From the NCBI RefSeq assembly GCF_003790525.1, contig NZ_CP033635.1: DNA of 64,000 bases. One strand, given 5' to 3'. Position numbers: made by a program. This document shows positions 54,001 to 57,000 of the stretch, one piece after another (the first letter of the stretch is position 1; each line of letters starts with the position of its first letter). Origin of the DNA: Escherichia coli (GTDB lineage Bacteria; Pseudomonadota; Gammaproteobacteria; Enterobacterales; Enterobacteriaceae).

Positions 54001-57000
54001 TAGAGCAGGTACAGAGCCTTTTGGCATTTTGCTGAATTTTTCTTTAGCGATACAGATCTCAATACGCATAAAAGTCCCTCTACACTGTGTTTGTATACAG
54101 CATTATTTTTAACTGTATGGATAAACAGTATCAAGAGGAACGGAACGCCAAAAGGTGATGTGTTTTTGTTACCATTATTTACAAACAGAAAAACCCCAGA
54201 CTGTGAAATCTGGGGTTTTTATAAAGTGCACGTGCATTTCACGTGTATATTTTTGTCTTGTTCAGGTCTGTTTGTTGTCTGGTCAGTGTCCGTAATTATC
54301 TGTTTTTATTGTCGATGTCCGGTTGCAGTCCTGTCAAAAATGGTGGAGCTGGCGGGAGTTGAACCGGCGAGCCTTTCGGCTCCCCCACACAGACCGCCAT
54401 AAATCGCGAATGTGACTGTGCAAACGATATGAGAGAAGACGCGGGCGCGTCTCATATCGCTCCGTAAACATCCGGGACGCCAATCCCGACAACCGATTTT
54501 GCGGTTGCGTGGGGAATATAGCCCCGGGGGACAAAAACTGTCAATGGGCAAAAATTTTCGTTATCAGGAATGTATAAAATTAAATCAATTGAGCAAAAAA
54601 TCCTTTCTGCAAAACTAAAAAAGATTTCAATAAAATCAGGCAGTTAAAAACGCTGAAAAACGGTATAAAAAAGCATCTCAAAATCCTGTTTTTTCTTTCA
54701 GATACAATATCTTATTTGATTTTTTAAAACCTGCCAGTGTGGTACATGGATATCGATACCACCGCCAATTATAAACTGGGCGGTGCACAGCAACACGATA
54801 GCGTACGCCTCGATCCGTGGGTGTTTATGTTCTCAGCAGGATATCGTTTTTAATTCCGCACAAAAACGACCCCGTAATATACGGGGTCAATAAGGACATG
54901 GTATAAAGGGTATTATTTCTTCGCTTCTACGCCATCAGTTTCAGAGCGAATTAAAAATTTCTCAGTTGTTTGCGGAATATGCTGAATCAGCCAGTCGGCC
55001 ATTTGCTTTTCCTCATTTAAAATCGCTTCGATGGTTGGAATTGAAGCTGTATCACCGGCATTTTTTGCTGCTGCTAAGAGTGAGGTGTAACAGGCGATTT
55101 CAAATTGCTCGAAGACATATCCGCTAATAGAGCCTTTGACTATTTCATCAGAAGGAAATATACCACTGATTGACTGCCCAAGCGCAGCCATTTTACTCAT
55201 GGAATCTTTAATGACTGAACGTGAAATGTCATTACGATCAAGAATAGTTTCCAGTTGAACAATCGGTTTTTGGTTTCACTAAGATGTTGTTCAATACGAG
55301 CGCGTAGTTCAGGATAATTATCTATACGGCTGGCCATGGATTAAAGCATAGATTCGGCTTGCTTTTCCATTGCGTGGGCGTCACGTAACCAGTCATGATA
55401 ATGTTCAATACGATTCATGAAAATGTCCTCTTTATAAAATGACTAAAAGTTAAAGTTCATATTTCAGGCTTTATTTTCGGCTTTCTTATTTACGTTATTA
55501 AGGGCCAGATCAGTCAGTTTGATGTCGGTGGCCTTTTCTTCTTCAAGAGTTTCTTTCAGAAGCTTAGCTGCTTTACGGTAACCTAATTGTTCAGCCAGCG
55601 TCGCTAATGTCCCGTAACTGGCAATCTCATAATGCTCGACTTTCTGTGCTGCGGCAATCAGTGCGGCATCACGCACTTCGTTTTTCTCGGTACTTTCGAT
55701 GACCTCATTAGCTTCTTCAATAAGACCTTCCATTGCCACACATTTCATGCGCTTAATTTTCAGATTCGATTCTGATTCCACAACTTGATCAATACGTTCA
55801 ATCTGTCCATGTGTTTCCTCGAGGTGCGCATGAAAAGCCTGACTTAATTTTTCGTTTGATGTTGCTCTAGCGAGTTTTGCCAGTGCACGTGTTAATTGTT
55901 TTTCTGCACTGTAGGTGTCTGAAAGCAGGTGAATAAATACATCTTCAATGGTCTTCATATTCATATTTTTCTCCAGTGAAATCACTGCGAGCCATACGGC
56001 CCGCAGATGCAATTATCTTTATCAGCTGATATTAATAATGAACGGTGAATCAGGATTTTCCTGATTTATTACCACCGCTTTGTTGACCGCCTTTTTTACC
56101 TGCTTCAGATGCGCGTTGCGGATCATTTTTAAAATTACCGCCGCTATGCTGACCGCCTTTACGGCCTGCGTCGGATGCCTTCTCACGGTCTTCGGCGAAA
56201 TTTCCTGAACCACCACGATGTTCGGCCATGTTATTTCTCCCGTTGCGCTGCATTGTTTGATTAATATGAGTGTTGTGTGTCGACACTCATTAAAATTAGT
56301 CGCAAATGAGAATTAGTCAAATTAAGCGTAACGAGAAAAAAGAGGAAAAATATATTTTGAGGAACATTCTGGATATATTAACAATTGCCTGAGGAATAAG
56401 TGACTTAGAGAAAATTATTGACTTTACTGGTGTTATGTTGCGGGATTAATTTGTTTGATTATATTACTGTTGGGCGGAAAAAAGACGTAAGTTGACGTTC
56501 GACAGGGGTAAGCGAAACGGTAAAAAGATAAATAATAAATGAATTTAGGATTTTTCCGGCTTCGTTAAAGAAAGTAAAAATGCCGCCAGCGGAACTGGCG
56601 GCTGTGGGATTAACTGCGCGTCGCCGCTTTCATCGGTTGTACAAAAGCTTTCAGTGCCGCCAGCATTTTCTCTGGCTCATTAATATGTTGCTCGATGATT
56701 TTAACGATGGCCGAACCAGAAATCGCGCCCGCAGCTCCTGCATCAATCGCTGCTTTTACCTGATCCGGGGCGGAAATACCAAATCCCTGCAATGGAGGCG
56801 CAGCATTGTATTCTTTCAGCTTCGTGACCAGATGATTGAGGGGTAACGCGGCGCGGTTTTCTGCGCCGGTCACGCCCGTACGCGACAATAAATAGGTGTA
56901 ACCACGACCGTAAGAGGCTATCTGGCGCAGCAGGTCGTCATCGGCATTTGGCGGGCAGATAAAGATAGGTGCGACATTATGACGCAACGCGGCCTGGCGG

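Follow-up and report, generated by a model that had tools for sequence, protein, structure and literature searches.

The chromosome of the Escherichia coli strain studied here carries an integrated prophage whose right end lies close to yciE, a gene with an apparently interrupted reading frame, and this neighborhood raises two questions: is yciE really a pseudogene in this strain, and did the phage have any part in its decay? Both questions were addressed in a stretch of 64,000 nucleotides (NCBI RefSeq assembly GCF_003790525.1, contig NZ_CP033635.1), which in its full length is referred to as the window. A first-pass annotation had described yciE as the disrupted lead gene of its operon, had suggested that its loss may reflect relaxed selection beside the phage or a polar effect, and had called for an alignment to the K-12 gene.

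This alignment, made with b1257 of K-12 MG1655, confirmed that the frame is not intact and that both of the proposed lesions are present. With a length of 506 bases compared with 507 in K-12, yciE of the window is about 99% identical to b1257 at the DNA level. Its orthology is evidenced by the DUF892 profile and the similarity to K-12 YciE as well as by its position, since it is the third gene in the order yciG-yciF-yciE between trpA and ompW, as in K-12. Reading the minus strand from position 55418 (ATG AAT CGT...) gives the translation MNRIEHYHDWLRDAHAMEKQAESML, followed by TAA where K-12 has GAA at codon 26. The single-base deletion suspected near position 55264 was found at exactly this place, the A of codon 52 being missing between 55265 and 55264, and there is no homopolymer run at the site. 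Instead of an open frame of about 168 codons, as a functional orthologue would have it, the gene thus displays a stop at codon 26 and a frameshift at codon 52. Besides these two lesions, it differs from K-12 by only two synonymous and two non-synonymous changes.

The ORF listing divides yciE into three pieces, namely a 25-codon start, a 46-codon ORF, and a 95-codon ORF. The last one (54913-55200) is the sole long ORF remaining, in agreement with the earlier statement that the C-terminal 95 codons are still open. Its product matches Pfam DUF892 (PF05974) at positions 73-158 of 159 (E = 1.1e-20), while intact K-12 YciE covers nearly the whole profile and matches PDB entry 3OGH, “Protein yciE”, with E = 3.6e-106. 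Judged from its sequence, this allele cannot give rise to full-length YciE. The possibility that yciE overlaps with a hidden RNA gene or with a regulatory element was also considered and rejected, as Rfam revealed nothing within 54913-55418 and the nearest matches, isrK and c4-a1b1, are located at 54432-54521. The features of the locus and of the prophage ends are compiled in Table 1.

Table 1. Positions of the yciE lesions, the remaining reading frames, the neighboring operon genes, and the prophage borders within the window.
Feature	Position	Strand	Evidence or remark
yciE pseudogene	54913..55418	-	Aligned to K-12 b1257; identical copy of SMS-3-5 flagged as pseudogene by NCBI
Premature stop E26*	55341..55343	-	Codon 26 TAA compared with GAA in K-12; T at 55343
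1-base deletion, -1 frameshift	55264..55265	-	A of CAG (codon 52) gone between both bases
C-terminal remnant ORF, 95 aa, from Met74 of YciE to the normal stop	54913..55200	-	ORF listing
Out-of-frame remnant ORF, 46 aa, from Met29 through the frameshift to TGA at 55197-55199	55197..55337	-	
Terminator-like hairpin and subsequent T-run, shortly past the yciE stop	54867..54889	-	
yciF, intact, 166 aa, paralogue upstream of yciE	55464..55964	-	Pfam DUF892 over full length
yciG, intact, 59 aa, first operon gene	56050..56229	-	Pfam KGG repeats
Left attachment-site repeat, 33 bases	848..880	+	Inside reconstituted ompW (328-966)
Integrase gene	1012..2142		After left ompW
Displaced host ompW 3' remnant, convergent with yciE	54735..54853	+	Begins with the right attachment-site repeat (33 bases)

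An inherited pseudogene is recognized by disabling differences from its intact orthologues that recur in independent genomes, and this is what was found in a collection of 5,426 complete E. coli genomes. Over a segment of 601 bases around yciE, 24 other complete genomes show 100% identity, among them SMS-3-5, whose identical yciE of 506 bases (ECSMS35_RS09500) carries the NCBI flag “frameshifted; internal stop”. A 141-base probe spanning both lesions was recovered exactly in 31 genomes and with no more than one difference in 124. Exact matches to a 71-mer centered on the stop were present in 116 genomes and to a 71-mer centered on the deletion in 39, and an ST648-type version of the latter, which includes one nearby G-to-T change, matched exactly in 83. 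Taken together, the deletion occurs in about 122-124 and the stop in 116 of the 5,426 genomes, and the broken allele accounts for about 2.3% of the complete genomes. The yciE of an ST648 strain (FH07_RS11080) displays both lesions along with one extra substitution and bears the same flag as that of SMS-3-5. Isolates of this clade came from humans, dogs, chickens, wild birds, and water. For identical alleles, the pseudogene is already recorded in RefSeq and is therefore known, not new; a literature search combining yciE and pseudogene, judged by title, yielded no title that looked relevant to this lineage.

The genomes also provided insight into the order of the two lesions. In TCM3e1, the deletion is present while codon 26 is still GAA, and the gene is flagged as “frameshifted” only. 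In total, eight genomes match the deletion probe exactly and differ on the side of the stop, the deletion-only state having been verified in one of them (TCM3e1) and inferred for the other seven, and for at most two of the 116 genomes with the stop, no match to the deletion was established. Based on these three observations, the frameshift is probably older than E26*, with the nonsense mutation following later; the same pattern could be produced by recombination instead of by the order of mutations.

The description of yciE as the lead gene turned out to be mistaken. On the minus strand, the genes are transcribed in the order yciG, yciF, yciE, in agreement with K-12, so that yciE is promoter-distal. 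McbR activates the yciGFE operon at the promoter of yciG, and yciF and yciE are paralogues (PMC7705038); for YciF of Salmonella, iron binding and ferroxidase activity have been reported (bioRxiv 10.1101/2023.01.20.524870). As the promoter is at yciG and yciE is the last gene, its lesions cannot be polar on yciF or yciG. Both upstream genes differ from K-12 nearly exclusively at synonymous positions, with 13 synonymous and one non-synonymous codon differences in yciF and two synonymous and no non-synonymous differences in yciG, a pattern that reads as one of continued purifying selection. Furthermore, yciF is 100% identical to that of SMS-3-5, and the region upstream of yciG is conserved. A promoter scan was uninformative: it detected a single, weak sigma-70-like site here, and more such sites in shuffled sequence. 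Across 54913-55964, yciE with its mere two synonymous differences from K-12 adjoins yciF with 13, which suggests a recombination boundary or a mosaic ancestry between the two genes.

Loss of YciE is not restricted to this allele. The genes yciE and yciF were each undetectable in about 706 of the 5,426 complete genomes (about 13%), and about the same share of complete E. coli genomes (about 13%) lacks yciGFE entirely. With a composite probe of ompW and trpA, 272 genomes were identified in which both genes are located within about 1.2 kb. In Es_ST80_L1_NDM_10_2017, 50 bases separate the end of ompW from trpA and yciGFE is missing altogether, in L73 an IS1 element replaces the locus, and other genomes reveal IS1 between trpA and ompW with differing spans. 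These arrangements suggest that yciGFE was lost repeatedly and independently, and that many E. coli can do without this stress locus. Relaxed selection in general, which was one part of the earlier proposal, is plausible because yciGFE is missing from such a proportion of genomes.

We therefore favor, with a probability of roughly 0.88, the reading that yciE is a real, vertically inherited pseudogene which arose by ordinary decay of a dispensable gene, the prophage being a later and independent arrival. Intact yciE is the last gene of an RpoS-type stress operon and encodes a DUF892 protein with a ferritin-like four-helix bundle, a paralogue of YciF. An ancestor would have lost one A in codon 52, shifting the frame and ending translation after 72 codons, and a descendant would then have gained the GAA to TAA change at codon 26. 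The lineage with the broken gene takes in the SMS-3-5 and ST648 strains; its product would be at most a 25-residue peptide plus fragments, while yciG and yciF upstream have stayed intact. The lambdoid prophage of about 54 kb entered the 3' end of ompW later and independently, with no causal role. That the loss was tolerated through dispensability, i.e., by neutral decay with the paralogue retained, is what we infer as the most economical account. The death of yciE joins the many small gene losses that are specific to individual E. coli lineages and matters little, although the broken allele could be used as a minor lineage marker.

Positive selection for losing YciE in the ST648/SMS-3-5 lineage, with yciG and yciF kept, is also conceivable, possibly due to the protein being costly or harmful in extra-intestinal or avian niches. 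Two independent inactivating mutations within a gene of 507 bases would fit such a history, as would the wide distribution and success of the clade across hosts and water, and elsewhere the locus was lost repeatedly, by clean absence or IS1 replacement and with several end points. Once the frameshift was present, however, a second lesion is to be expected under neutrality, the intact yciF and yciG indicate that the function of the operon was not discarded, and with its 2.3% the allele has reached only a small part of the complete genomes. Although the sequence counts alone fit neutral decay and selected loss alike, we consider selection for the loss unlikely; if true, it would make the frameshift allele an adaptive marker of the lifestyle of the clade.

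The prophage itself extends from about 848 to 54767 (about 54 kb) within the 3' end of ompW and is lambdoid. A 33-base direct repeat, CAGTGTGGTACATGGATATCGAYACCACCGCCA, is present at 848-880 and at 54735-54767, with no other copy in the window, and the right attachment site is located 146 bases from the stop codon of yciE. The reconstituted ompW on the left side (328-966) is of full length (212 aa) with phage-derived last codons, ASYKFNGTPVKDAVRL replacing ANYKLGGAQQHDSVRL. As the ST648 strain harbors a different prophage remnant at this place, prophages have evidently integrated into ompW more than once; in this clade, yciE is broken with the site filled as well as with the site empty.

Several further features of the prophage were observed. 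Two copies of the IS256-like element IS1414 are present in direct orientation, at about 43222-44520 and about 52459-53760 and 9,237 bases apart, with 99% identity over the 300 bases compared and a transposase of 402 aa each on the minus strand; the right-hand copy has an equal position in TUM1886. Between the two copies, ORFs for a YadA-like adhesin (50164-51597) and a sigma-factor-like helix-turn-helix protein (51659-52114) were identified. A periodic repeat of 45 bases (15 codons), with about 15 or more units, covers 47335-48339 within a 543-aa ORF (47218-48849), which sits in the cargo and tail fiber region. Rfam matches above the gathering score comprise the C4 antisense RNA (5876-5963), DicF (6299-6348), the c4 target a1b1 (54469-54521), and isrK at two sites (5988-6064 and 54432-54508), the second isrK forming a pair with c4-a1b1 just inside the right attachment site. 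A tRNA-Met (CAT) and a tRNA-Arg (TCT) at 17182-17335 precede the lysis genes. tRNAs before the lysis genes are the arrangement of Stx-type lambdoid phages; stx genes in the 1.3-kb gap behind these tRNAs were rejected by length only, since no ORF there exceeds 125 aa and StxA has a length of 319 aa.

Due to the short distance between the right attachment site and yciE, and to the ST648 strain, in which prophage remnants at ompW likewise occur alongside a broken yciE, the phage might be suspected of having caused or promoted the decay by a polar effect or by locally relaxed selection. A pseudogene beside a prophage need not be made by the prophage, and the question is settled by a comparison of genomes according to whether they carry the phage and whether they carry the lesions. 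SMS-3-5 and TCM3e1 both have a broken yciE, with ompW intact and the prophage absent. Conversely, TUM1886 and GF4 carry a similar prophage right end at ompW, consisting of a DinI-like gene and an ompW remnant and, in TUM1886, also IS1414, together with an intact yciE of 507 bases that has a protein accession. A probe composed of the prophage junction and yciEFG was covered to at least 80% in 17 genomes with a best identity of 98.4%, and in no genome of the 5,426-genome collection did the junction occur together with the yciE allele of the window. The allele is found in more than 100 genomes, while this junction is unique within the group; the allele being clade-wide and the prophage strain-specific within the clade, the lesions predate the insertion.

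The arrangement of the genes speaks against the supposed polar effect as well. The insertion is downstream of yciE, with yciG and yciF on its other, upstream side, and since the prophage begins only past the terminator and the convergent ompW remnant, transcriptional polarity on yciE is impossible. The lesions are independent of the prophage, from which they dissociate in both directions, and the tie between relaxed selection and the phage, the other part of the earlier proposal, is lost for the same reason. A contribution of the phage to the decay is thus very improbable.

Even less credit can be given to the idea that the 95-residue C-terminal half with its two helices functions as a half-size ferritin-like subunit. 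At 55197-55200, the sequence ATGA contains the TGA of the 46-codon ORF overlapping the ATG of the 95-codon ORF, which could permit translational coupling of the two, and the longer ORF is still open in the window and SMS-3-5, in the ST648 strain, and in TCM3e1. An open frame is, however, to be expected of a young pseudogene with only two to five substitutions overall, one of the substitutions after the lesions is non-synonymous (G85S), positions 1-72 of the DUF892 profile, half of the domain, are missing, and in the NCBI annotation the locus counts as a pseudogene; the overlap is probably a coincidence. Finally, single-base indels commonly arise as sequencing or assembly errors behind which yciE would really be intact, but with both lesions shared base for base by 31 independent complete assemblies, the deletion recurring in about 122 genomes outside a homopolymer run, and the other lesion being a substitution, an artefact appears excluded for practical purposes.

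Among known systems, the locus is most readily compared with that of K-12, with which it shares the synteny of trpA, yciG, yciF, yciE, and the convergent ompW as well as a nucleotide identity of about 99% to b1257. The K-12 gene encodes a DUF892 ferritin-like protein of 168 residues, which the copy of the window cannot, due to E26* and the -1 frameshift in codon 52; the crystal structure 3OGH comes from strain CFT073. SMS-3-5 is identical over 601 bases and displays both lesions, but has no prophage in ompW, in contrast to the approximately 54 kb inserted in the window. The lineages with a deletion of yciGFE or its replacement by IS1 reveal another route to the loss of YciE at the same chromosomal position; these have also lost yciG and yciF, whereas here the distal gene alone was inactivated, by point lesions.
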